Shown in pieces: positions 2 through 9,932 of a stretch of DNA of 10,412 nucleotides. Positions within the stretch are counted from its first letter, which is position 1. Every line of letters begins with the position of its first letter. Under the pieces are notes generated by a model. It made no database searches. It saw nothing but the letters and a program-made list of their open reading frames with translations, and was not told the origin of the DNA. Source of the stretch: Candidatus Heimdallarchaeota archaeon (GTDB lineage: Archaea; Asgardarchaeota; Heimdallarchaeia; Heimdallarchaeales; Heimdallarchaeaceae); the NCBI GenBank assembly GCA_021399395.1, contig JAAFKJ010000011.1:1-10412 (forward strand), written 5' to 3'. Position numbers and translations under genes: made by a program.

Positions 2-1048
2 GAAGATATACTTTTAGAGATTAAAGGGCTCAAGACATACTTTTTCACAGAAGAGGGTGTAGTTAAAGCTATTGAGTCTGTTGATATTGTCGTTTATAAA
101 TCTGAAACACTGGGCTTAGTGGGTGAATCAGGTTCGGGTAAGTCAGTCACTGCTTTATCCATTCTTGGGATTGTTCCTGATCCTCCAGGCAAAATCCTTG
201 GTGGTGAAGTGATTTTTCATGGTCAAGATCTGAGACATCTTAGTGATTCAGATATGAGAAAAATCAGAGGTAATCAAATTGCTATGATTTTCCAAGATCC
301 AATGACCAGTCTTAATCCAGTATTCACTGTTGGTGATCAGATTAGCGAGGCTATTATGCTTCACCAAAAAGTGACAAAGAAGGAAGCTAAAGAGAAATCT
401 ATCAAAATCATGTCCCTCGTAGGTATTCCTAGTGCTGATGAACGTGTGGACAATTATCCCTTTGAATTTTCTGGGGGGATGAGGCAACGTGTTATGATTG
501 CAATGGCTCTCAGCTGTAATCCTGAATTACTAATAGCTGACGAACCATCAACTAGTCTTGATGTTACCATTCAAGCACAAATTCTCGAGCTACTGAAAGC
601 TACAAGTGAAGAGTTTGATATGAGTATCATTCTTATCACACACGATATGGGTGTTATTGCTGAAATGTGTGATCGTGTGGCAGTTATGTATGCCGGATAT
701 ATTTGTGAGGTTGGTGATATTATGGTTATTTTCAAATCGCCCTACCATCCTTATACAAGAGGTTTGCTAGGTGCAATTCCGAGACCAGATGCGGCAAGAG
801 AGGATCTGACGATTATCAGAGGATCTATTCCAAATCTTATCAATCCTCCCTCTGCATGCAGATTCCATCCAAGATGTGATTATATGATGCAAGGGTTGTG
901 TGAGCATAATCTACCTGATTTAGTAGAAATAGAACCAGATCACTTTGTGAGATGCCACCTTTATACTGAAGAGGGAAAAGCTTGGATGCAAGAACGTGGT
1001 GAAAAGAAGGAAATTGGCAAAATGCCAAAAGTAGCAACAACAATTTAG
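2..1048 (+). CDS. oppD: Oligopeptide/dipeptide ABC transporter ATP-binding subunit (OppD/DppD-like), 5'-truncated by the window edge
   Basis: The frame is open from position 2 ([48 protein letters not shown]), so the ORF-track start at 119 is an internal Val. Motifs: Walker [10 protein letters not shown]-loop [11 protein letters not shown], signature FSGGMRQR, Walker B LLIADEP, H-loop ITHD, HPYT, and a C-terminal CRFHPRC..C..C cluster. Confidence 0.93.
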
Positions 1049-1052
1049 GTGA
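1047..1052 (+). promoter_or_regulatory. Shine-Dalgarno (AGGTGA) for the oppF-like gene, overlapping the oppD stop
   Basis: AGGTGA at 1047-1052 lies 5 nt before ATG 1058, which favours ATG 1058 over GTG 1049 as the start. Confidence 0.7.
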
Positions 1053-1057
1053 AAAAA

Positions 1058-2281
1058 ATGGGTAGTTCAGAATCTTTTATTGATAAACTTGCTTCTAAAC
1101 AACAGCAGAAAGGACTTCTAGCTGATCGTATTAGAACAAAAGATATGGGAGAAGATGTAATTTTAGATGTTATAAATTTGAGAAAATTCTTTGATATTCC
1201 TGTGCCCTTCGAAACCACTTGGTTTATGATTGCGTTTGTTGGAGCTGTTGTTTTATTTGCATTTTACCAACTTTATGGACTGATTGCAATCGGCGGAATT
1301 ATTGTTCTTTACTTTGCTTTACCGTATGTTCCACCATTTAACAAAAGACCAAAAGTAGCACATCTTAAAGCGGTTGATGGTATTAGCTTACAAATCAAAA
1401 AAGGTAAGATTGTTGGTTTGGTTGGAGAATCAGGTTGCGGTAAAAGTACAGCAGCAAAAACAATTATTAGGTTACATGAACCTACATCAGGTTCAGTTTA
1501 TTTCAAAGGAATTGATATTAATCGTTTAACCTCTGAGGAAATGAAAGAAATCAGGAGACATTTGCAAATTGTATTCCAAGATCCTTATGCTTCATTAAAT
1601 CCTCGAGCTACAGCACATGATATCATTATTGAACCATTTGATATTCATGGAGTAGCTTCCGGAGATGAAGCCAGTTACAGAGTTCTAACACTCTTGAAAG
1701 ATGTAGGTCTTGCTCCTCACCATGCTTATCGTTACCCTCACGAATTCAGTGGAGGACAAAGACAAAGACTAGGGATTGCAAGAGCTTTAGCATTAGAACC
1801 TGATTTTATAGTAATGGATGAACCAGTTTCAAACCTCGATGTATCTGTTCGTGCAGCTATCATTCAGCTAATTCTCGAGCTTCAAAGAAAAATGGGTCTG
1901 ACCTATTTGTTCATTGCTCATGATTTATCTCTTGTTAAAATCCTCTGTGATGAGGTTAATGTAATGTATCTAGGAAGAATAATGGAAGCTGGAACCAGTG
2001 ATGAAATTTTTGAATCAATGATGCATCCATATACTAAAGCTTTGATTTCCGCAGTACCAATTGCAGATCCAACAAAGCGTTCTAAGAAAATCTTCCTTAC
2101 AGGAGATATTCCAACTCCCATCAATCCACCTCCAGGATGTAAATTCCAAACAAGATGTCCTCTAGTATCTGATGTATGCCGTGTAGAAGAACCTCAAGAA
2201 AGATGGTATTCAGAAACACATGTGGCCTACTGTCATAATATTGAAGGCGGAGAAGAGACCCCAGATTTCTTTAAACAATAA
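1058..2281 (+). CDS. oppF: Oligopeptide/dipeptide ABC transporter ATP-binding subunit (OppF/DppF-like) with an inserted hydrophobic, putative transmembrane segment
   Basis: KAVDGIS, Walker A GESGCGKS, VFQDPYASLNP, YPHEFSGGQRQR, Walker B IVMDEP, IAHD, HPYT, CKFQTRC..C..C. Start chosen from the SD at 1047-1052. Confidence 0.92.
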   Translation: MGSSESFIDKLASKQQQKGLLADRIRTKDMGEDVILDVINLRKFFDIPVPFETTWFMIAFVGAVVLFAFYQLYGLIAIGGIIVLYFALPYVPPFNKRPKVAHLKAVDGISLQIKKGKIVGLVGESGCGKSTAAKTIIRLHEPTSGSVYFKGIDINRLTSEEMKEIRRHLQIVFQDPYASLNPRATAHDIIIEPFDIHGVASGDEASYRVLTLLKDVGLAPHHAYRYPHEFSGGQRQRLGIARALALEPDFIVMDEPVSNLDVSVRAAIIQLILELQRKMGLTYLFIAHDLSLVKILCDEVNVMYLGRIMEAGTSDEIFESMMHPYTKALISAVPIADPTKRSKKIFLTGDIPTPINPPPGCKFQTRCPLVSDVCRVEEPQERWYSETHVAYCHNIEGGEETPDFFKQ

Positions 2282-2402: not shown

Positions 2403-3155
2403 ATGAGTAGAGTGAATCTTGAATCAGCTCAGAATAATATCGAGCGATTATCAAATAATCTGAATGAATTGCAACAAATGCTCTCCAGCAAGAATGATGA
2501 GTTGAACGCAAAAATCAGAGAATTTAATGATGTACTCTCTTCTTTCTTTAGAGAAGCAGATGAAAAGAATCAGCTCTTTAACAAAGAGGAAGAAAGAAAG
2601 AGAACAAATAGTGAAGAATTGGAGCAACTTAATGCTAAGTTCCAAGAATTGAATTCTAGAAAAGATATCCTGCAATCAGAAATCGCCAGTAAACAACAAG
2701 ATATTGGACAGTTATCGGCTTTAGTTCTTGAAAGAGAGAAATTAAGTACAGAAGCTAGCCTTCAAGTTGATTCTCTCAACGAAAGAATTGCTAATTTTAA
2801 CAGAAAAATCGAAGAGATGGAAGTTCTTACAGATGCGCTAATTGAAGAAACTAAGGAGAAAACAAGAACTTTGGAAATAAAGAACGCCGAATTATCAGAA
2901 CAATATAATAGAATAGTATCACGTTCCAAGTCCTTACAATATCTAATCAAAAAGGATATTGTAACACTTCCTGAAATTCAAGTGATTCGCAGCTTGAATA
3001 CACCTGGTATTGACACATTGGATAATCTTCGAAAAACATCGGGGGTTTCAGAGGATATTATTAGAAAAATACTACAAGATCTAGCCCGACTAGAAGTTGT
3101 TGCTTTTGATCCATCAACTGGAAAAATCCAGATTTTATCAAGGATTGATATTTAG
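2403..3155 (+). CDS. Hypothetical protein: long N-terminal coiled coil plus C-terminal winged-helix (TrmB/MarR-like) domain
   Basis: 250 aa. Residues ~1-175 are E/K/Q/N/L-rich, Pro-free and show heptad periodicity. The C-terminus PEIQVIRSLNTPGIDTLDNLRKTSGVSEDIIRKILQDLARLEVVAFDPSTGKIQI fits a helix-helix-turn-helix plus beta-wing pattern. Confidence 0.75.
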   Translation: MSRVNLESAQNNIERLSNNLNELQQMLSSKNDELNAKIREFNDVLSSFFREADEKNQLFNKEEERKRTNSEELEQLNAKFQELNSRKDILQSEIASKQQDIGQLSALVLEREKLSTEASLQVDSLNERIANFNRKIEEMEVLTDALIEETKEKTRTLEIKNAELSEQYNRIVSRSKSLQYLIKKDIVTLPEIQVIRSLNTPGIDTLDNLRKTSGVSEDIIRKILQDLARLEVVAFDPSTGKIQILSRIDI

Positions 3156-3166
3156 GAGGAATAAAG

Positions 3167-3919
3167 ATGACAATAGAAAAACTCAATGAAATTTTAGGTG
3201 ATTTAAAGCGAGGAATAGAAGAATTTTCATCACGCTCTTCTTCAACTATTTCTAGCTCGAAAATAACTCTTGAATCAACAGAAGCTGATGTTAGAGCCAT
3301 TCCTGAATATCTTTTAACTCTTCAGAATTCAATGAATGAAATCCAGAAGAACAATAAAGAATTAGAAGAGAAAATAATGAATATAAAACAAGCAATTGAT
3401 ACTGTTACAACTGAGATTGAAATTAATGAGAGCAACAAAGGTGATCTTATAGAGACCGAAGGTAGGAAAAGGACCTATAAAGAAGATTTGGAAAGGCAAA
3501 TAGCTGAGTCTCAACAAAAGAAAGCTCAACTTGATTTAGAATTCAATGATGCTGGTGGTGATGCCACTAGAAAAGAACAAGAATATAATCAATTACAAAT
3601 AAGCACAGGAGAAGAGATTGAGCGTTTAAACCAACAAATAGGTGAAGCAACAACAAGGGTTCAACAAGCAGAATCAGAGAACAAGTTGATTGTGTACCTC
3701 ATGGATGCTGGTTTGATGGATGTTCCAGAAGCTGAAGTGGTAGCGATAGTTGCGGCATATCCAAATGGTTTGAAAATTGATGAAATCAAGCAAAAAGTCA
3801 ACATGCCACCTGTAAGGGTACAACCAACAGTAAATAATCTTCTAGAAACAGTCTTAGAATATGATGCACTATCTGATTCCTACAAGATTATAGATACAAT
3901 CAAAAAAGAGCTTTTGTAA
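3167..3919 (+). CDS. Hypothetical protein: long N-terminal coiled coil plus C-terminal winged-helix-like domain; probable distant paralogue of 2403-3155
   Basis: 250 aa, 11-nt gap from the upstream gene, SD GGAGGA at 3155-3160. Coiled-coil composition to ~aa 172, then PEAEVVAIVAAYPNGLKIDEIKQKVNMPPVRVQPTVNNLLETVLEYDALSDSYKI. Confidence 0.72.
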   Translation: MTIEKLNEILGDLKRGIEEFSSRSSSTISSSKITLESTEADVRAIPEYLLTLQNSMNEIQKNNKELEEKIMNIKQAIDTVTTEIEINESNKGDLIETEGRKRTYKEDLERQIAESQQKKAQLDLEFNDAGGDATRKEQEYNQLQISTGEEIERLNQQIGEATTRVQQAESENKLIVYLMDAGLMDVPEAEVVAIVAAYPNGLKIDEIKQKVNMPPVRVQPTVNNLLETVLEYDALSDSYKIIDTIKKELL

Positions 3920-4053: not shown

Positions 4054-5466
<1,413 letters not shown>

Positions 5467-5474
5467 TTTAGAAA

Positions 5475-5502
5475 GATAGGAATATCCTATCACTCTTTTT
5501 TC
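5475..5502. terminator. Hairpin plus T-run between convergent genes; candidate bidirectional terminator
   Basis: Perfect 7-bp stem GATAGGA-ata-TCCTATC (5475-5491), followed on + by actctttttt and on - by tttct. It overlaps the TGA of the minus-strand gene. Confidence 0.55.
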
Positions 5503-8465
5503 TCTTCTTGTTTTATTATCATCCCTTCCCTATTTTGTGCATCTATTCGCACAATTAGGGGGTGCTTTAATCTGACATGGTTCACATATTGGAGTTCTCT
5601 TTCTGGTTTTTTAGCTTGCAACCATTCCCAATCTATGAAGTGATTTTCCTTTGTATGTTTGATGTGGAAGTAACCTATGTTTGCTGTTACTATATTATGA
5701 AAGAAATGAGTTCCTTGAGAGAAATCAACCATGAAATCTTGTAAAGATGTTTCGATTATTGCCTTTGCACCACTAATATTACTCCATTTAACAGGAATGC
5801 CTAAGAATCTATCAGCTGTTCCCCATCGACCAAATCCGATTAAGAGATATGATCTACCTTCTTTAAGTAACAAAGCATTCAACTCATCTATTTCCTCAAC
5901 CATTTCTAGTGTTTTGGTTTTATCAAACATTTCTGGTTTGACATAGATTACGTCTTGGATATCTTTTCGGAGTAAATTGCCTGAAACGTGGTTTGAGTAT
6001 GCAAGGACCTGACTTACATCTACTGAATCATAATCTTCCATCAGTAGTATTTCTTGTTGCAAGAATGGTCGTATCTGAAGTATAGAGAAAACATTTTTCT
6101 CATCAGGTGAGTTCTTAAAAGTTCCAGCGAATTCTATTTCAATCGAAGACCCGAGTGCTCTTTCACCTATTTGCAGAATCCTTGTCAATAATTCAGATAG
6201 AGGAAAGATAGAGTATTTGAGTTGCTGACCAAATGTAATTACAGGAGAACCTTCACCAAAAAATCCATCTCTTAGTGCTTCGGATTCAAAATTATAGGAA
6301 TCAGCTATTTTGGTTAATGTTCCATCTTTAATTGCATCAGACAAATTTAACCGTTTCATATAAGGATCATCATTCAAAATATCAAACTCTTTCATTGTTA
6401 AATCAATAGCATAATAGTTCTTCTGACTTTGTTCAAGAAGAATATCTGGAGTTGAGAAATAATTGATTTTAGGGTACTTAGGGCAAAATCGAACTGCTGA
6501 TTCACCTTCTACTATAGTTTTTCCAAGTCCTAGAGCTAAATGAGCGATTCGATCTTCTGGTTTCATGTAATCGCCAAAAGGATAATAGTTGTAAGAAGAA
6601 GCTGTTCCAGAGAAGTCTGGATAAAATCTATCATTGTGTTCATGCCCTACTACTTCCTGGATTACGACAGCCATTTTAGATTCTTCTACTGTCTGCTGAA
6701 TAGTCTCAGCATAGGATTTAGCAAGTTTCAAGAATTGAGATGCATATACCAATTTTATTGCAGTACAAAGCTGTTTTGTTCTCTCTTCATCACCATCTTG
6801 ATTATTTGGAATCATATATGTATCAAAAATACCAGCAAATGGTTGATATGCTGAATCTTCAAGAAGGCTTGATGATCTAATTGCCAAGGGACCAGTAAGA
6901 TCTTTTAATAGAAAGCGAAGATCTTTCACTATGCTTTTAGAGAGTTTTGCCTTTACAAACTTCTTTTTGATTTCTTCATCACTTGTCTCGGATAAGGCAA
7001 ATTCGTAAAGATTATTTTCTTCCATAAACTTATCATATTCATCGGTTCCAATTACAATCGTTTTGGGAATTTCTACTGATATGTCTTCAAATTCAGATTC
7101 AATCAGAAATGAATTCAACAAGAACATAAGAAAAGCAATTCCTCTACCTTTTCCACCTAAAGATCCAGGACGGAGTCGTAAGAACAAAATCTGATGGTGA
7201 TAGTTTTCATAAGAAAAATCGTTAATTACACCTTTTGTTTTTTCGTTGACAAGTTTATTAATAGTTTTTAGGAGAAAGTCTTGAAGTTCTTCTTTTGTAA
7301 ATTCAGACACTTTTCTGGGTTTAAGCGTTTCAGCAATCTCAAACTCTCCTCTAGCATGTAACCAATTTGAAAAATGGTCATTCTTACCATGAAATACAAG
7401 ACATTCTAAAGGAACCTCAGAGATTTTGCTGAAAAATGTTATAACGTCATTGGCATTGCCAAATTCAACGCCATCTTGATTTTTGAAAACAAAATCACCA
7501 AATCCCACATATTGAAGAAGCCAATTCCTTAAATCCCACATCATTCCATGAGAACGTTTGTGGATGTAAAAACACCCCATCTCTTCTGCTTCCTCTCTAT
7601 AGAATTCTTTACTGGATTGAAGTACAATTGGAAGATTTGTATTTTCTTCTTTTATTCTCTTAGCAAAAAGAAATCCTGCGTTCTTAGTTAGTTTACCATC
7701 TACTGGGAATTCTATATCAGAGATTACGCCCATCAGATAATCTTTGTATTTTTCATAATAAGCAAGAGCTTCTTCATAGGTTTCAGCTAAAAGAATTTTG
7801 GGTCTAACTCTCATCTTAAGTAAATCTTGGAAATCGTTTGTACCTTCAGTTATTAATCGATGAGTTTGCCGCATTATCTCACCATAAAGCTCTGGGAGGA
7901 GGAGTGAATAGAAACGAATAGAATCGTCTACAAAAATAAAAACTCTAACATTCCCCTTCTGGGTATCATAATCAGCATTAAATTTATCTTCAAGATGTTT
8001 TATTATGGCAACAAATATTTTAGAATCACCATTCCAAACAAAGACACGGTCAATTCCCTTTCTTTTTTCAAATTCAGGAAGGTATTTTATTTCAACAACA
8101 CTGTTCAGAAGCAATATTACTGGAATATCTTGAATTGATTTTACATTCACTCCAAAAGAAAACGCATCCATATCCCCTAGCCTTCTCATGGTTATTACCA
8201 AATCAAACTTCTTTTCTCCAAGCATTTCAAGAGCTTCATTTGCAGAAGAAACACGGGTAATTCTCGGTAAAGTTCTGAGATTGAGGTTCTGGAATTCTTC
8301 ATAGATTTGATCAGATAGACGCCCATCTTCTTCGAGCATGAAACTATCATAGATACTTGATACAAGAAGAACATTCCTCATCCGGATATCCATTAATTCA
8401 TGAAATATTTTGTACTTTGGCTTATATTCTAGAAAGAAACTCTCTGCATCTTGATGTGAAGACAA
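5490..8465 (-). CDS. Receiver-domain-containing PEP-synthase/PPDK-like ATP-grasp protein ('PEP/pyruvate-binding domain' family), function unknown
   Basis: 991 aa, TTG start with a strong SD AGGAGGT 6 nt upstream. Degenerate REC (NVLLVSS..FDLVITM); second REC (FVD180D181, GVISD250, LQSS, YIHK303); PPDK_N-type motifs GSLGGKG (434-440), IRSSSLLEDS..PFAG (R530), MAVVIQEVVG, LGLGKTIVEG, IEIEFA, LQIRP (796-800); C-terminal GFGRWG and SQGTH920FFHN. Confidence 0.85.
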   Translation of the reverse strand: MSSHQDAESFFLEYKPKYKIFHELMDIRMRNVLLVSSIYDSFMLEEDGRLSDQIYEEFQNLNLRTLPRITRVSSANEALEMLGEKKFDLVITMRRLGDMDAFSFGVNVKSIQDIPVILLLNSVVEIKYLPEFEKRKGIDRVFVWNGDSKIFVAIIKHLEDKFNADYDTQKGNVRVFIFVDDSIRFYSLLLPELYGEIMRQTHRLITEGTNDFQDLLKMRVRPKILLAETYEEALAYYEKYKDYLMGVISDIEFPVDGKLTKNAGFLFAKRIKEENTNLPIVLQSSKEFYREEAEEMGCFYIHKRSHGMMWDLRNWLLQYVGFGDFVFKNQDGVEFGNANDVITFFSKISEVPLECLVFHGKNDHFSNWLHARGEFEIAETLKPRKVSEFTKEELQDFLLKTINKLVNEKTKGVINDFSYENYHHQILFLRLRPGSLGGKGRGIAFLMFLLNSFLIESEFEDISVEIPKTIVIGTDEYDKFMEENNLYEFALSETSDEEIKKKFVKAKLSKSIVKDLRFLLKDLTGPLAIRSSSLLEDSAYQPFAGIFDTYMIPNNQDGDEERTKQLCTAIKLVYASQFLKLAKSYAETIQQTVEESKMAVVIQEVVGHEHNDRFYPDFSGTASSYNYYPFGDYMKPEDRIAHLALGLGKTIVEGESAVRFCPKYPKINYFSTPDILLEQSQKNYYAIDLTMKEFDILNDDPYMKRLNLSDAIKDGTLTKIADSYNFESEALRDGFFGEGSPVITFGQQLKYSIFPLSELLTRILQIGERALGSSIEIEFAGTFKNSPDEKNVFSILQIRPFLQQEILLMEDYDSVDVSQVLAYSNHVSGNLLRKDIQDVIYVKPEMFDKTKTLEMVEEIDELNALLLKEGRSYLLIGFGRWGTADRFLGIPVKWSNISGAKAIIETSLQDFMVDFSQGTHFFHNIVTANIGYFHIKHTKENHFIDWEWLQAKKPERELQYVNHVRLKHPLIVRIDAQNREGMIIKQEEKKE

Positions 8466-8471
8466 TAGTTA

Positions 8472-8478
8472 ACCTCCT
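8472..8478 (-). promoter_or_regulatory. Shine-Dalgarno AGGAGGT supporting the TTG start at 8465
   Basis: The + strand acctcct reads AGGAGGT on -, with a 6-nt spacer to TTG. AT-rich TATA-like candidates lie at ~8492-8503 and ~8520-8527. Confidence 0.75.
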
Positions 8479-8560: not shown

Positions 8561-9910
8561 TTATTTCGCAAGTATTTTGTCGTCATCTTCTGAACCTGTT
8601 CTTTGGATGAACAATGTACATACTAATGCAGCTACAAAAAAGATGCTTGAATATAGAAATAGAAAACTAATATTTGAAGCATCAAAAATAGCTCCAGCCA
8701 TAACAGGAGAAACGATTGCAGCTAGTGCAGAGAAGAAGTAATATAAACCTGTATAAGTACCCAAACGAGCTGTTCCAGCAAGTTCCCATACTATTACGAT
8801 ACTGTTTATGTTTATAAATGCCCAGAACATTCCTCCAAGGAAGAGCAAAACTCCATCAATTAATATTTCCCATGTCCACTTAAATGGGAGAAATCCAATG
8901 AATTCGCTTAGTGCAGGGACACGAACTATTGACAGTATTACAAGAGGAATCATTACAGATATTAATCCAATAAGACCTATGATTATAGTTTTCTTTCGCC
9001 CTATTTTTTTTGCGATTAAACCTGCAGGAATAGCGAATATGATGAATGTCAAAGAGTAAACTCCTAGTAGCATACTTGCTGATCCTTCCGTCATATTAAG
9101 CAGATTAGGATCCGTTGCATATAGACTAAACCATGTTTCAATTGCATTGAAAGCGAAGAACCAGAATAGTATTGCCAAAAGAATGAAAATCAAACTTTTA
9201 TCCTTGTCTTTAAACATATTCCGAATTGCATCTAGCAGACTAACTTTTTCTTTTTCTTCCACATCAACCCGTTCTTTAGGTTCTTTTATATTAAAATACA
9301 GAACTACCAGACACAAAACCATCACTACTGAAGCAATTACAAAAGTGATAATTGGGTTGTCAGGGTCGTAAATTGCACCCATAACAAAGAGTCCTATTAA
9401 AGCTCCAACTCCACCAAGAAGATTGATGACTGCATTACCTCGACTTCTATATTCCTTTGACACTAAATCGGGCATGAGAGCTACCACTGGAGCTCTGTAC
9501 AAAGCCATTGAAATATTGAAACCACCGATGATTATAATGATTAGAACTAAGGAATCCTTAAATGTTGGAATTAAACCAAAGAAAAGAGCAGCAATCGGTA
9601 TTCCAGCAAGAATAAAAGGCATACGACGACCAAACTTGGTCCATATATTGTCAGAAACCTTTCCTATCCATGGTTGAAGTGTAATAGCAGCGATATTATC
9701 AAGCACCATTATGATACCTATTATTAATTTTGCATTGTCTAAATGACCAAGCAAAGAATCTAGATATACTGGCACATAGATGTTAAACATAGACCAAGTT
9801 ATTGCAGTTGTGAAAAAACCCAGACCTATAACTGCTGTATAAAGGTATGAAAAACTCTTTCTATCTCTAGCATCTGCATAATTACTTATAACATTTCTAA
9901 AAAACGACAT
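8561..9910 (-). CDS. MFS transporter, SLC45/GPH (sucrose/maltose permease-like) family
   Basis: About 12 hydrophobic segments; motif A variant QPWIGKVSDNIWTKFGRRMPF; ALMPDL; AGLIAKKIGRKK in the second half; GTYTGLYY. Start taken as ATG 9910 (GTG 9931 is the alternative) because of the TATA position. Confidence 0.88.
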   Translation of the reverse strand: MSFFRNVISNYADARDRKSFSYLYTAVIGLGFFTTAITWSMFNIYVPVYLDSLLGHLDNAKLIIGIIMVLDNIAAITLQPWIGKVSDNIWTKFGRRMPFILAGIPIAALFFGLIPTFKDSLVLIIIIIGGFNISMALYRAPVVALMPDLVSKEYRSRGNAVINLLGGVGALIGLFVMGAIYDPDNPIITFVIASVVMVLCLVVLYFNIKEPKERVDVEEKEKVSLLDAIRNMFKDKDKSLIFILLAILFWFFAFNAIETWFSLYATDPNLLNMTEGSASMLLGVYSLTFIIFAIPAGLIAKKIGRKKTIIIGLIGLISVMIPLVILSIVRVPALSEFIGFLPFKWTWEILIDGVLLFLGGMFWAFININSIVIVWELAGTARLGTYTGLYYFFSALAAIVSPVMAGAIFDASNISFLFLYSSIFFVAALVCTLFIQRTGSEDDDKILAK

Positions 9911-9932
9911 AATAAGTGAAAATTTTTGCACC

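Follow-up and report, generated by a model that had tools for sequence, protein, structure and literature searches.

The dikinase-type enzymes, which include PEP synthase (PEPS), PPDK, glucan water dikinase and rifampin phosphotransferase, have to our knowledge only metabolic or drug-modifying roles and employ a dedicated acceptor domain. In particular, all the characterised relatives that we know of phosphorylate small or polymeric non-protein acceptors, namely pyruvate, glucan, rifampin and phenol. Rifampin phosphotransferase (RPH-Lm; 5hv1, 5hv3, 5fbs) joins an N-terminal dikinase ATP-grasp domain to a C-terminal swivelling His domain, with a rifampin-binding domain of about 430 amino acids (aa) between the two, and carries no receivers. 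The only precedent known to us for a swivelling His domain with a protein acceptor is Enzyme I of the PTS (2wqd, 5woy), which hands its phosphate to the protein HPr; however, Enzyme I itself receives this phosphate from PEP, at a TIM barrel, and not from ATP at an ATP-grasp domain, and it too is devoid of receivers. PleD-type proteins (1w25, 3luf), for their part, place two receivers, one of them Asp-less, before an enzymatic output, and PleD itself has an active first receiver, a second one that serves as adaptor and a GGDEF output. Response regulators combining receiver and pyruvate phosphate dikinase domains, with the same architecture as the protein described here, have been catalogued in organisms that include Heimdallarchaeota (Galperin et al., PMC5847659), and Asp-less receivers have been found enriched with PPDK effector domains (Maule et al. 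2015, PMC4395418). The passages of these two censuses that concern such proteins deal with the domain combination only, and are silent on function, on the absence of the barrel, on a cryptic His domain and on any link to glutamate dehydrogenase (GDH). A search of the literature found no functional study of the family, which figures there in census entries only. What is new in the present analysis is the size of the family, the swivel-type fold of its tail, the GDH link and the existence of members that have lost Asp250 and kept His920.

The window, that is, the whole stretch of 10,412 nucleotides analysed here from a Candidatus Heimdallarchaeota archaeon, contains on its minus strand a gene (5490..8465, stop codon 5490-5492) which, according to the list of open reading frames (ORFs) and their translations, encodes 991 aa from a TTG start. 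This ORF, singled out in the preliminary description of the DNA, proved to be real: a GGAGG element lies at 8473..8477, 8 nt upstream of the TTG, and homologues spanning the full length, with 55-100% identity to the product, occur in Asgard archaea. Since conservation in the family consensus begins already at about aa 19, sequence comparison favours the long TTG start over the ATG at aa 29. A 963-aa database entry starts at this ATG. The protein, whose full-length structure model reaches a pLDDT of 91.1, is built of five parts, in the order pseudo-receiver, receiver, DUF5752-like helical module, PPDK_N ATP-grasp domain and a tail of 189 aa, and every motif named in the preliminary description was found at the residues assigned to it there. 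The family counts 1054 clusters at 50% identity (E<=1e-30), with 906 matches across species genomes of Asgard archaea, Acidobacteriota, Bacteroidota, Gemmatimonadota and others. In the Heimdallarchaeial order of the window, where 42 of 47 genomes carry it, it is a near-core gene of uncharacterised function.

The nucleotide-binding part is a dikinase-type ATP-grasp domain (aa 433-802; 6060..7169, minus strand), over which PPDK_N (PF01326) matches aa 435-802 with an E value of 1.2e-34, in agreement with the motifs recognised earlier at about aa 434-800. Its fold gives Z scores of 23-26 to rifampin phosphotransferase, 25.3 to PEPS (2ols) and 18.8 to PPDK (1dik), and it shares with the two latter enzymes the ATP-binding and metal-ligand positions. 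Specifically, G437, G438, K439, R530, S531, S532, E536, D537 and Q797 are carried by all 115 family members compared, and E778, a metal ligand together with Q797, by 114 of them. As already proposed, the TIM barrel is missing and there is no room for it: the Pfam scan of the 991-aa protein returned no match at E<=1 to the PEP-utilizers TIM barrel (PF02896) or to the mobile domain, and the protein ends 189 aa past the ATP-grasp domain, with these residues modelled as one swivel-type domain. No structure matches the full model better than rifampin phosphotransferase (Z 26.4 and 26.1), in which an ATP-grasp domain likewise precedes a C-terminal domain on a single tether, a swivelling His domain there and a putative one here. 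In contrast with that enzyme, the putative His domain here comes directly after the ATP-grasp domain, the full model showing no domain in between and thus no central rifampin-binding domain, and three modules are added at the N-terminus. With the rifampin phosphotransferase profile (NF041857), whose cut-off is 999 bits, the protein reaches 23.6 bits, over aa 497-607 only.

The tail (aa 803-991; 5493..6059, minus strand) carries the candidate phospho-carrier, His920 (codon 5706..5708, minus strand). The earlier reading of this region, a segment of about 190 aa with a variant sequence instead of the classical motif, holds: SQGTHFFHN occupies residues 916-924, and His920 is conserved in 113 of 115 members, next to G918 (114) and S/T919 (106). 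Modelled alone (pLDDT 87.7), the tail takes the form of a swivelling phosphohistidine-type domain, with modest fold scores. The four best of 48,161 chains, aligned over 107-119 residues, are the His domain of PPDK (2fm4, Z 6.9), that of rifampin phosphotransferase (5hv1 756-867, Z 6.7), maize PPDK 383-512 (Z 6.6) and the C-terminal domain of pyruvate kinase (Z 6.5), and the His domain of Enzyme I matches at Z 5.6-5.7 (2wqd, 5woy); values of 6.5-6.9 fall in the middling range of the search tool, and no chain attains Z 8. The proposed swivel fold is supported, at this modest level, by phosphohistidine domains being its best matches, but not by Foldseek, which returned nothing for the tail at E<=0.001. 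Likewise, a PDB profile search with the tail gave nothing below E 0.55, hhalign against 11 canonical His domains gave a probability of 1.1%, and PF00391 has no match in the 991-aa protein or elsewhere in its genome. In the Atlas, the tail matched nothing but fragments of family members. Among 120 listed of 502 short proteins that match the tail, most come from short contigs and several bear the label partial; they show PF01326 or no Pfam domain, and no clear stand-alone or otherwise fused form of the tail is seen. The tail illustrates that a domain of the phosphohistidine type can escape the current profile libraries.

In the models, His920 is the first residue of a helix (920-927) that follows a strand (900-906) and a loop, so placing G-[ST]-H at a helix start, where canonical domains have G-G-x-T-S-H. 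On the order of secondary structures and the alignment ranges, His920 may be equated with the catalytic His. Compared with the His domain of PEPS and PPDK, which is central in those enzymes, the tail is C-terminal, goes undetected by sequence and has about 70 extra residues; these comprise a conserved insertion with the motif G-x-G-R-W-G-[ST]-x-D. Rigid alignments of the full model run through the tail with PEPS 2ols (365 residues, model 412..987 to chain 10..467), PPDK 1dik (350 residues, 426..986 to 7..510) and rifampin phosphotransferase 5hv3 (366 residues, 417..946 to 6..866), while the isolated ATP-binding domain 5hv6_A aligns 277 residues only, over 412..802. The tail therefore appears to be docked on the ATP-grasp domain in the model as in the PEPS and PPDK crystals.

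At the N-terminus, two receivers are arranged in tandem. As the Pfam Response_reg score of 29.6 bits is slightly below the cut-off of 30.2, their identity rests on the modelled fold. REC1 (aa 29-166; 7968..8381, minus strand) gives Z 12.8 to the PmrA receiver in a search of solved structures with model 29..166, and it is a pseudo-receiver without the acidic pair, the acceptor Asp, the Ser/Thr and the Lys of the phosphorylation pocket: S36 and S37 stand where the acidic pair is expected. The preliminary description had called this domain degenerate on account of FDLVITM, with Thr at the acceptor position. The motif is there (residues 87-93) and the domain is indeed Asp-less, but M93, and not T92, may be the equivalent of the acceptor, because the modelled beta-3 strand runs from 89 to 93. 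The five commonest residues in the 115 members are T/V/I/A/S at position 92 and M/T/F/V/S at position 93, none of them acidic. W144, G146, E159 and D160, in the same region, are invariant or nearly so in the family. REC2 (aa 172-324; 7494..7952, minus strand), which has a long insertion between beta-1 and beta-3, matches Spo0F, MicA, ArlR and others at Z 13-14 over model 172..324, with 114-121 residues aligned. The full pocket ascribed to it earlier is present, with D180, D181, D250, S284 (LQSS being 282-285) and K303. In the 115 members E/D180 is kept in 114, D181 in 100, D250 in 104, S/T284 in 110 and K303 in 111; position 180 is Glu in 108, so that the Asp of the window protein is the minority form. 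Asp250 (codon 7716..7718, minus strand), the predicted phospho-acceptor, ends the model strand 244-250. It is absent from 11 of 115 members, all of which retain His920 and every catalytic residue of the ATP-grasp domain, and an 815-aa member (P0156) keeps the enzyme core although the latter half of REC2 is missing, along with the linker module. The pair resembles PleD (Foldseek E 1.4e-7), and 3luf aligns 229 residues over model 29..322; however, the order of the receivers is reversed, and the output is a dikinase core instead of GGDEF.

Receivers and ATP-grasp domain are connected by a helical module (aa 325-432; 7170..7493, minus strand) that is modelled as five helices and two short strands. 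The motif picked out in the preliminary description, FHGKNDHFSNWL, ends with the invariant W368. The proposed likeness of this module to DUF5752 is weak: 15 of 21 scanned members match PF19027 at E<=0.01, and a single member (25.5 bits) exceeds the Pfam gathering cut-off of 23 bits. The window protein itself has no PF19027 match at E<=1 in the Pfam scan, and an Atlas feature score of 0.84 between the module and DUF5752 clusters is to be taken as a lead only.

A feature that the preliminary description had missed is the conserved link to GDH. In the window, a GdhA-type GDH of 446 aa (4126..5466, plus strand; ELFV_dehydrog E 1.2e-90) is the convergent neighbour, its gene ending 23 nt beyond the stop of the family gene. 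By tblastn, a GDH homologue is found within the fetched flanks of 49 of 79 diverse loci, spread over at least 10 phylum-level labels; a count based on ORFs gives 43 of 79, as antisense shadow ORFs hide GDH genes. When at least 5 kb are available on both sides, GDH is present at 33 loci and absent at 10 of 43. The distance is 500 bp or less in 32 of the 49 loci, all four orientations of the two genes are seen (of 46 cases scored, 20 have them on opposite strands), and two Bacteroidota loci interleave three family genes with two or three GDH copies. Of the 76 gene copies that could be scored on the family tree, 54 have GDH within 3 kb, and the state changes 13 times or more along the tree. The distance matrices of 49 family/GDH gene pairs correlate with r 0.81 (maximum 0.19 in 1000 shuffles), a value confounded by shared descent. 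GDH adjoins the family gene in all 26 genomes of the window's own genera (g1 and g6); in genus g9, two complete genomes have 114-117 kb between the two genes, families f2-f4, which belong to the same order, have them on different contigs, and three genomes, 82-88% complete, have the family gene and no GdhA match. Taken together, the gene neighbourhoods make GDH a likely functional partner of the family enzyme. Three further leads were discarded: an ORF that seemed to fuse the family protein to GDH at one locus turned out spurious, being an overlapping frame in DNA of high GC content; the MFS transporter gene of the window (8561..9931) has no counterpart in the 79 family loci and hence does not belong to the system; and a placement of the B. 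thetaiotaomicron family gene between BT1970 and BT1973 was dropped, BT1971 being a catalase.

The reading we tentatively prefer, as a plausible one, is that of a receiver-regulated dikinase-type phosphotransferase linked to GDH, for which the acceptor is only a candidate. ATP would be bound by the ATP-grasp domain, and His920, on a swivelling domain held by one short tether, would accept the beta-phosphate in the manner of PEP synthase, PPDK and rifampin phosphotransferase. The phosphate would then be carried to an acceptor presumably other than pyruvate, because there is no TIM barrel. REC1 would act as a structural pseudo-receiver, as in PleD-type tandems, and REC2, through Asp250, as a regulatory input. 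Asp250 is missing in 11 of 115 members and His920 in only 2, and the Asp250-less sequences fit a regulating receiver better than a receiver that is the only substrate. Direct results of the analysis are the domain make-up, the conservation, the modelled fold of the tail and the linkage of the gene to GDH. We infer that His920 is autophosphorylated, that REC2 is regulator and not substrate, and that the target is the neighbouring GDH, most likely controlled post-translationally via phosphorylation or phosphorylation-dependent binding; GDH provides a concrete candidate for the acceptor that had been anticipated as "another protein". The prior for GDH as direct substrate is low, since we know of no swivel-His dikinase that phosphorylates a protein except along the Enzyme I route. 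A stronger version, in which a swivel-His dikinase has been rebuilt for protein-directed signalling, with phosphate passing from ATP to His920 and on to GDH, or to its own receiver that then acts on GDH, is possible, though somewhat unlikely. If true, it would represent a phosphotransfer route driven by the conversion of ATP to AMP, outside histidine kinases and Hanks kinases and common to Asgard archaea and many bacterial phyla. In that case the family enzyme might also be the agent by which ammonia reversibly inactivates the GDH of Bacteroides. The present form of dikinase is devoid of an acceptor domain, wired to receivers and linked through gene order to GDH, the entry point of ammonia into glutamate; its place next to GDH in many distant microbes points towards a novel mode of control over nitrogen metabolism. 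Should the enzyme control GDH, it would provide major soil and gut phyla with a post-translational mechanism that governs nitrogen assimilation, and would represent a new type of phosphotransfer signalling.

A different possibility, raised in the preliminary description, is a self-contained His-to-Asp relay, in which phosphate moves from ATP to His920 and then to the protein's own Asp250, in cis or across a dimer, with no need for a histidine kinase and with phospho-REC2 as the output that, for example, binds GDH. Receivers phosphorylate themselves when given phospho-imidazole donors, most members have an intact REC2 pocket, no recognised acceptor-binding domain exists in the protein, and the N-terminal receivers sit where other dikinases hold acceptor domains. 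Moreover, as had been noted, the window encodes no histidine kinase (no such domain in the seven other ORFs scanned), and the 261 flanking ORFs scanned around 77 of the 79 loci, 141 of them at E<=1e-6 and 120 at E<=1e-10, include a single one with HATPase_c. However, at least five HATPase_c genes are present elsewhere in the organism's own genome, so that unlinked kinases may exist. The conservation of Asp250 suits the relay, but as the only route it is weakened because the 11 Asp250-less members keep His920, the tail motifs and all ATP-grasp residues, and the truncated REC2 of the 815-aa protein weighs in the same direction. Overall, we regard the relay as unlikely.

Distinctly unlikely is that the enzyme is a small-molecule dikinase, with His920 phosphorylating either one of the metabolites around GDH (2-oxoglutarate, glutamate, ammonia or a nicotinamide cofactor) or some compound unrelated to it. 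The metabolite would bind to the DUF5752-like module, to the conserved REC1 face or to the tail's G-R-W-G insertion. The closest structures, RPH, HpeI and PEPS, and the non-protein acceptors of the characterised relatives speak for it, as does the strong conservation off the known catalytic sites (W144, G146, E159, D160, W368, G879-G882). GltD/NfnB-like genes, present near 12 family loci and accompanied by their partner subunit near 8, would also be in keeping with such chemistry. On the other hand, the protein has no known substrate-binding domain, the two receivers argue for signalling, and the frequent location of GDH on the opposite strand is more readily expected of a regulator and its target than of two enzymes in one operon.

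Returning to the preferred phosphotransferase, its catalytic competence could be questioned by supposing a nucleotide-sensing pseudoenzyme, in which the ATP-grasp domain does no more than sense the energy state by binding ATP or AMP, the tail is structural and no phosphotransfer takes place. That no sequence profile sees the tail as a His domain, and that its fold match is modest, would agree with this view; nevertheless, the invariance of the ATP-grasp catalytic positions, together with the near-invariance of E778 and His920, exceeds the needs of binding alone, and makes it very improbable.

Finally, an ordinary PEP synthase or PPDK with receivers added, suggested by PPDK_N and by fragments bearing database names such as 'pyruvate, phosphate dikinase, partial', is already refuted by the domain anatomy, as the preliminary description had proposed. 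The NCBIfam models of PEPS, PigC and RPH score 16-56 bits against cut-offs of 598-1350, those of PEPS alone 16-46 bits against 598-1063 (best 46.2 against 883; TIGR01418 31.7 against 739.75). In addition, 19 of 21 related genomes encode a separate canonical PEP-utilizers protein, mostly of 902-1000 aa, and the organism's own genome carries another PPDK_N gene that is truncated by the end of its contig.

The family gene (5490..8465, reverse strand) encodes a protein of 991 aa and opens with a TTG codon, preceded 8 bases 5' by GGAGG. Since the family consensus, as seen when 115 full-length members are aligned, is already conserved from about residue 19 onward, this long start is likely, judging from the sequence, to be the true one. 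The motifs quoted in the preliminary description were each found at their residue, in the translation as well as in the 115-member alignment. In a Pfam scan the protein matches PPDK_N at aa 435-802 (E 1.2e-34), Response_reg lies slightly below threshold (29.6 bits versus 30.2), and beyond these two no family matches at E<=1.

In the AlphaFold model of the whole protein (pLDDT 91.1, pTM 0.84), the ATP-grasp core matches the folds of rifampin phosphotransferase (RPH; Z 26.4), PEP synthase (PEPS) 2ols (25.3), HpeI (18.8) and PPDK (18.8). Residues G437, G438, K439, R530, S531, S532, E536, D537 and Q797 occur in all 115 members and E778 in 114, a near-invariance that argues for catalysis beyond mere ATP binding. 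The family protein shares this dikinase core with PEPS and PPDK but has no PEP/pyruvate TIM barrel, which was predicted to be missing and is indeed absent at Pfam E<=1; it likewise lacks the rifampin-binding domain of RPH. The NCBIfam models for PEPS, PigC/RedH and RPH score only 16-56 bits against cut-offs of 598-1350, and match only part of the ATP-grasp. Moreover, 19 of 21 related genomes encode a separate canonical PEP-utilizers protein, usually 902-1000 aa long, and a second PPDK_N gene, truncated where its contig ends, occurs in the window's own genome. The earlier statement that the protein is not a PEP synthase is thus borne out; in fact it falls outside PEPS, PPDK and RPH alike. By analogy, the enzyme may nevertheless work in the manner of a PEPS, PPDK or RPH-type dikinase.

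Such chemistry calls attention to the tail (aa 803-991), which had been proposed to carry a phospho-accepting histidine, His920. A separate model of the tail, built on 57 aligned tail sequences (pLDDT 87.7, pTM 0.87), was compared all-against-all with 48,161 chains. The top matches were the phosphoryl-carrier domain of PPDK (2fm4; Z 6.9, rmsd 3.6, 116 aligned of 128 residues), the C-terminal His domain of RPH (5hv1 residues 756-867; Z 6.7), residues 383-512 of maize PPDK (Z 6.6), the C-terminal, PEP-utilizer-like domain of pyruvate kinase from B. stearothermophilus (Z 6.5) and Enzyme I (Z 5.6-5.7); 15 chains reached Z>=5 and none Z 8, values that are middling by the tool's own scale. Foldseek returned nothing at E<=0.001 with the tail model, its weak rows including apical domains of chaperonins, PA domains and beta subunits of class I fumarases, all members of the 'swivelling beta/beta/alpha' fold. 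Sequence methods (PDB profiles, PF00391 and hhalign) gave no link between the tail and canonical His domains. The top fold matches, of middling score, thus lend modest support to an assignment as a swivelling phosphohistidine domain, while Foldseek and sequence comparison drew a blank.

His920 itself is conserved as expected, being His in 113 of the 115 members, and it is preceded by G918 (114/115) and S/T919 (106/115). In the models it is the first residue of a helix (920-927) that comes after a strand (900-906), and the G-[ST]-H motif occupies the same strand-loop-motif-helix-strand order as G-G-x-T-S-H-A-A in the canonical His domains of the relatives' own PPDK. The canonical domain is about 70 residues shorter than the tail, whose insertion contains a stretch nearly invariant among the 115 members, G-x-G-R-W-G-[ST]-x-D-x-x-L-G-I-P-V-x-W. 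Rigid alignments of the full model to PEPS 2ols (365 residues aligned; model 412..987, chain 10..467), PPDK 1dik (350; model 426..986, chain 7..510) and RPH 5hv3 (366; model 417..946, chain 6..866) continue through the tail; the alignment to an ATP-binding domain alone (5hv6_A) covers 277 residues, model 412..802. From these ranges, which give first and last residues only, we infer that in the model the tail is docked on the ATP-grasp where PEPS, PPDK and RPH dock their His domain. Given established dikinase chemistry, the invariance of the ATP-grasp and the conservation of the His on a docked, swivel-type domain would together imply that ATP is bound by the ATP-grasp and that His920 takes the beta-phosphate, with release of AMP + Pi. 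The tail would then swing on a single linker (aa 801-815), at which pLDDT dips in the full model, to bring the phosphate to an acceptor.

At the other end of the protein, REC1 (29-166) and REC2 (172-324) are both receiver folds in the model, with Z 12.8 to a solved receiver for the former and Z 13-14 to Spo0F, MicA, ArlR and others for the latter; the fold search likens the tandem to PleD-type REC-REC proteins. The contrast drawn earlier between a degenerate REC1 and an intact REC2 applies to the family at large. In REC1 the acidic pair is Ser-Ser, and positions 92 and 93, at the end of beta-3 in the model, have no acidic residue among their five commonest. In REC2 the pocket is kept in 100-114 of the 115 members: E/D180 in 114, D181 in 100, the predicted phospho-acceptor D250 in 104, S/T284 in 110 and K303 in 111. 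Through REC2, then, the 991-aa protein is a genuine REC protein. Residues 144-167 (window 7968..8033 region) form the last strand of REC1 and a long helix into REC2, and W144, G146, E159, D160, N163 and D167 are invariant or nearly so, a strictness unexpected for a pocket-less receiver. The linker module that follows (aa 325-432) is modelled as two short strands and five helices, with W368 invariant among the 115 members. PF19027 (DUF5752) gives a sub-threshold match here in 15 of 21 scanned relatives and passes its threshold in one, and Atlas features connect the module to DUF5752 (0.84), as a lead only; no paper mentioning that name was found in the literature search.

The family is large. 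Of 7996 candidates scored in a word-indexed search with the 991-aa query, 5007 proteins had E<=0.001; the best 120 of these are mostly about 990 aa long and come from Heimdall-, Hod-, Thor- and Odinarchaeota, the named entries among them being 'PEP/pyruvate-binding domain-containing protein'. When cluster representatives were searched exhaustively, 4670 matched at E<=0.001, of which 1054 reached E<=1e-30, and the majority of the best 150 align with the query end to end; a scan of genomes, one for each species, yielded at least 906 relatives. Some members (P0132, 1557 aa; P0196, 1524 aa; and one at L015:6240-10916) carry about 540-590 additional N-terminal residues before the normal architecture, an extension in which Pfam recognises nothing at E<=0.01. 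The 79 loci retained derive from Asgard archaea, Acidobacteriota, Bacteroidota, Gemmatimonadota, Eisenbacteria, Myxococcota, Thermoplasmatota and others.

The architecture as such is already catalogued, as two census papers record the domain combination: Asp-less receivers are enriched with PPDK effector domains (Maule et al. 2015, PMC4395418), and REC-PPDK is listed in three Heimdallarchaeota (Galperin et al. 2018, PMC5847659), with no function given to it in the accessible parts of either paper. What is new is the cryptic His domain, the family-wide succession of a pseudo-receiver and a true receiver, the lack of an acceptor domain, and the linkage to glutamate dehydrogenase (GDH). The literature searched, largely outside subscription journals and supplements, contained no functional study of the family and no paper tying it to GDH.

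Clustering of the ORFs around the 79 loci revealed one dominant neighbour family, the homologues (61-88% identity) of the GdhA-type GDH that is the family gene's convergent neighbour in the window (4126..5466, forward strand). By tblastn, GDH is found in the fetched flanks of 49 of the 79 loci and, among the 43 loci flanked by 5 kb or more on each side, in 33; in 32 of the 49 it lies within 500 bp of the family gene. Among 47 GDH ORFs, one of which has no family ORF called nearby, 20 are upstream and co-directional, 10 divergent, 10 convergent and 6 downstream and co-directional. Counted per copy, with 20 copies left out for short flanks, GDH lies within 3 kb of 54 of 76 scorable family genes, with at least 13 state changes on the family tree (both trees were built with FastTree, and related genomes are not independent samples). 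Distance matrices for 49 family gene-GDH pairs correlate with r 0.81, a value inflated by shared descent, against a maximum of 0.19 in 1000 shuffles. In two Bacteroidota bins (L043:1-12406 and L068:973-15131), three family genes are interleaved with two or three GDH copies, and the paralogue pairs agree between the two trees.

Within the window's order, 42 of 47 genomes have the family gene, usually in single copy, in two lineages of the family tree (loci L111-L126 and L001-L004). The first, the window's clade, is the sister group of a Bacteroidota clade and takes in one bin with the label Anaerolineales; the second, from families f2-f4, groups with Thermoplasmatota. This pattern suggests more than one transfer of the gene between domains. 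GDH linkage is limited to the first lineage: the family gene and GDH adjoin in 26 of 26 genomes of genera g1 and g6 that have both, genus g9 being the exception (114-117 kb apart in two complete genomes), and in f2-f4 they lie on separate contigs. GdhA had no match in three genomes with the family gene (82-88% complete).

Other neighbours are rarer. GltD/NfnB-like genes (Fer4_20 + Pyr_redox_2) occur in 12 loci (e.g., L011, L012, L013, L019, L025, L052, L072) and DHODB_Fe-S_bind partner-subunit genes in 8, which would be in keeping with a theme of NADPH and glutamate. The remaining ORFs of the window encode two Opp-type ABC ATPases, two coiled-coil proteins, GDH, an MFS transporter and an HTH fragment; a domain scan detected no histidine kinase among them, as first reported, and HATPase_c appears in 1 of 261 flanking ORFs, with thresholds differing between two batches. 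The MFS gene has no conserved place beside the family gene in the 79 loci.

Mixed gene orientation, together with the signalling domains, leads us to favour a regulator-target relation between the family protein and GDH over a shared operon pathway. As no DNA-binding domain was detected in the family protein, its control of GDH would presumably act after translation. Ammonia is reported to inactivate the GDH of Bacteroides fragilis in vivo in a reversible manner (Yamamoto, Saito and Ishimoto, 1987); a further reference is Baggio and Morrison (1996).

It is quite possible, and in our ranking the foremost reading, that REC2 is the input and that the acceptor is external and tied to GDH. The preliminary description had proposed, besides transfer to another protein, a His-to-Asp relay from His920 to the protein's own Asp250, for which speak the pocket intact in about 90% of members, the lack of a linked kinase and the position of the receivers in the place of the acceptor domain. 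Asp250, however, is lost in 11 of 115 members (N in four, S in two, E, Q and C in one each, and two gaps), all of which retain H920 as well as the tail motifs and every ATP-grasp residue, whereas H920 is lost in only 2 of 115; furthermore, one natural variant without half of REC2 and the linker module retains the core. This asymmetry is the pattern expected of a receiver regulating an enzyme, and it therefore places REC2 as input with a GDH-tied acceptor ahead of the relay, which appears rather unlikely. A small molecule as acceptor of the His920 phosphate ranks third and is more doubtful still.

Some further features of the loci deserve mention. In FCB-group/Marinimicrobia-type loci L021, L050, L065 and L073 the family gene adjoins phosphoglycerate kinase, and in L050 also triosephosphate isomerase. 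The tandem coiled-coil proteins of the window (2403..3155 and 3167..3919, forward strand; 250 aa each) have no Pfam match and only weak mutual likeness (E 0.001), and the close relative L002 has a comparable pair of 249-aa ORFs beside its GDH (L002:12554-13303 and 13318-14067), again with no Pfam matches. Finally, in the OppF-like ABC ATPase (1049..2281, forward strand) ABC_tran begins only at aa 110, and the N-terminal extension has a long hydrophobic stretch, unusual for a soluble ATPase subunit.
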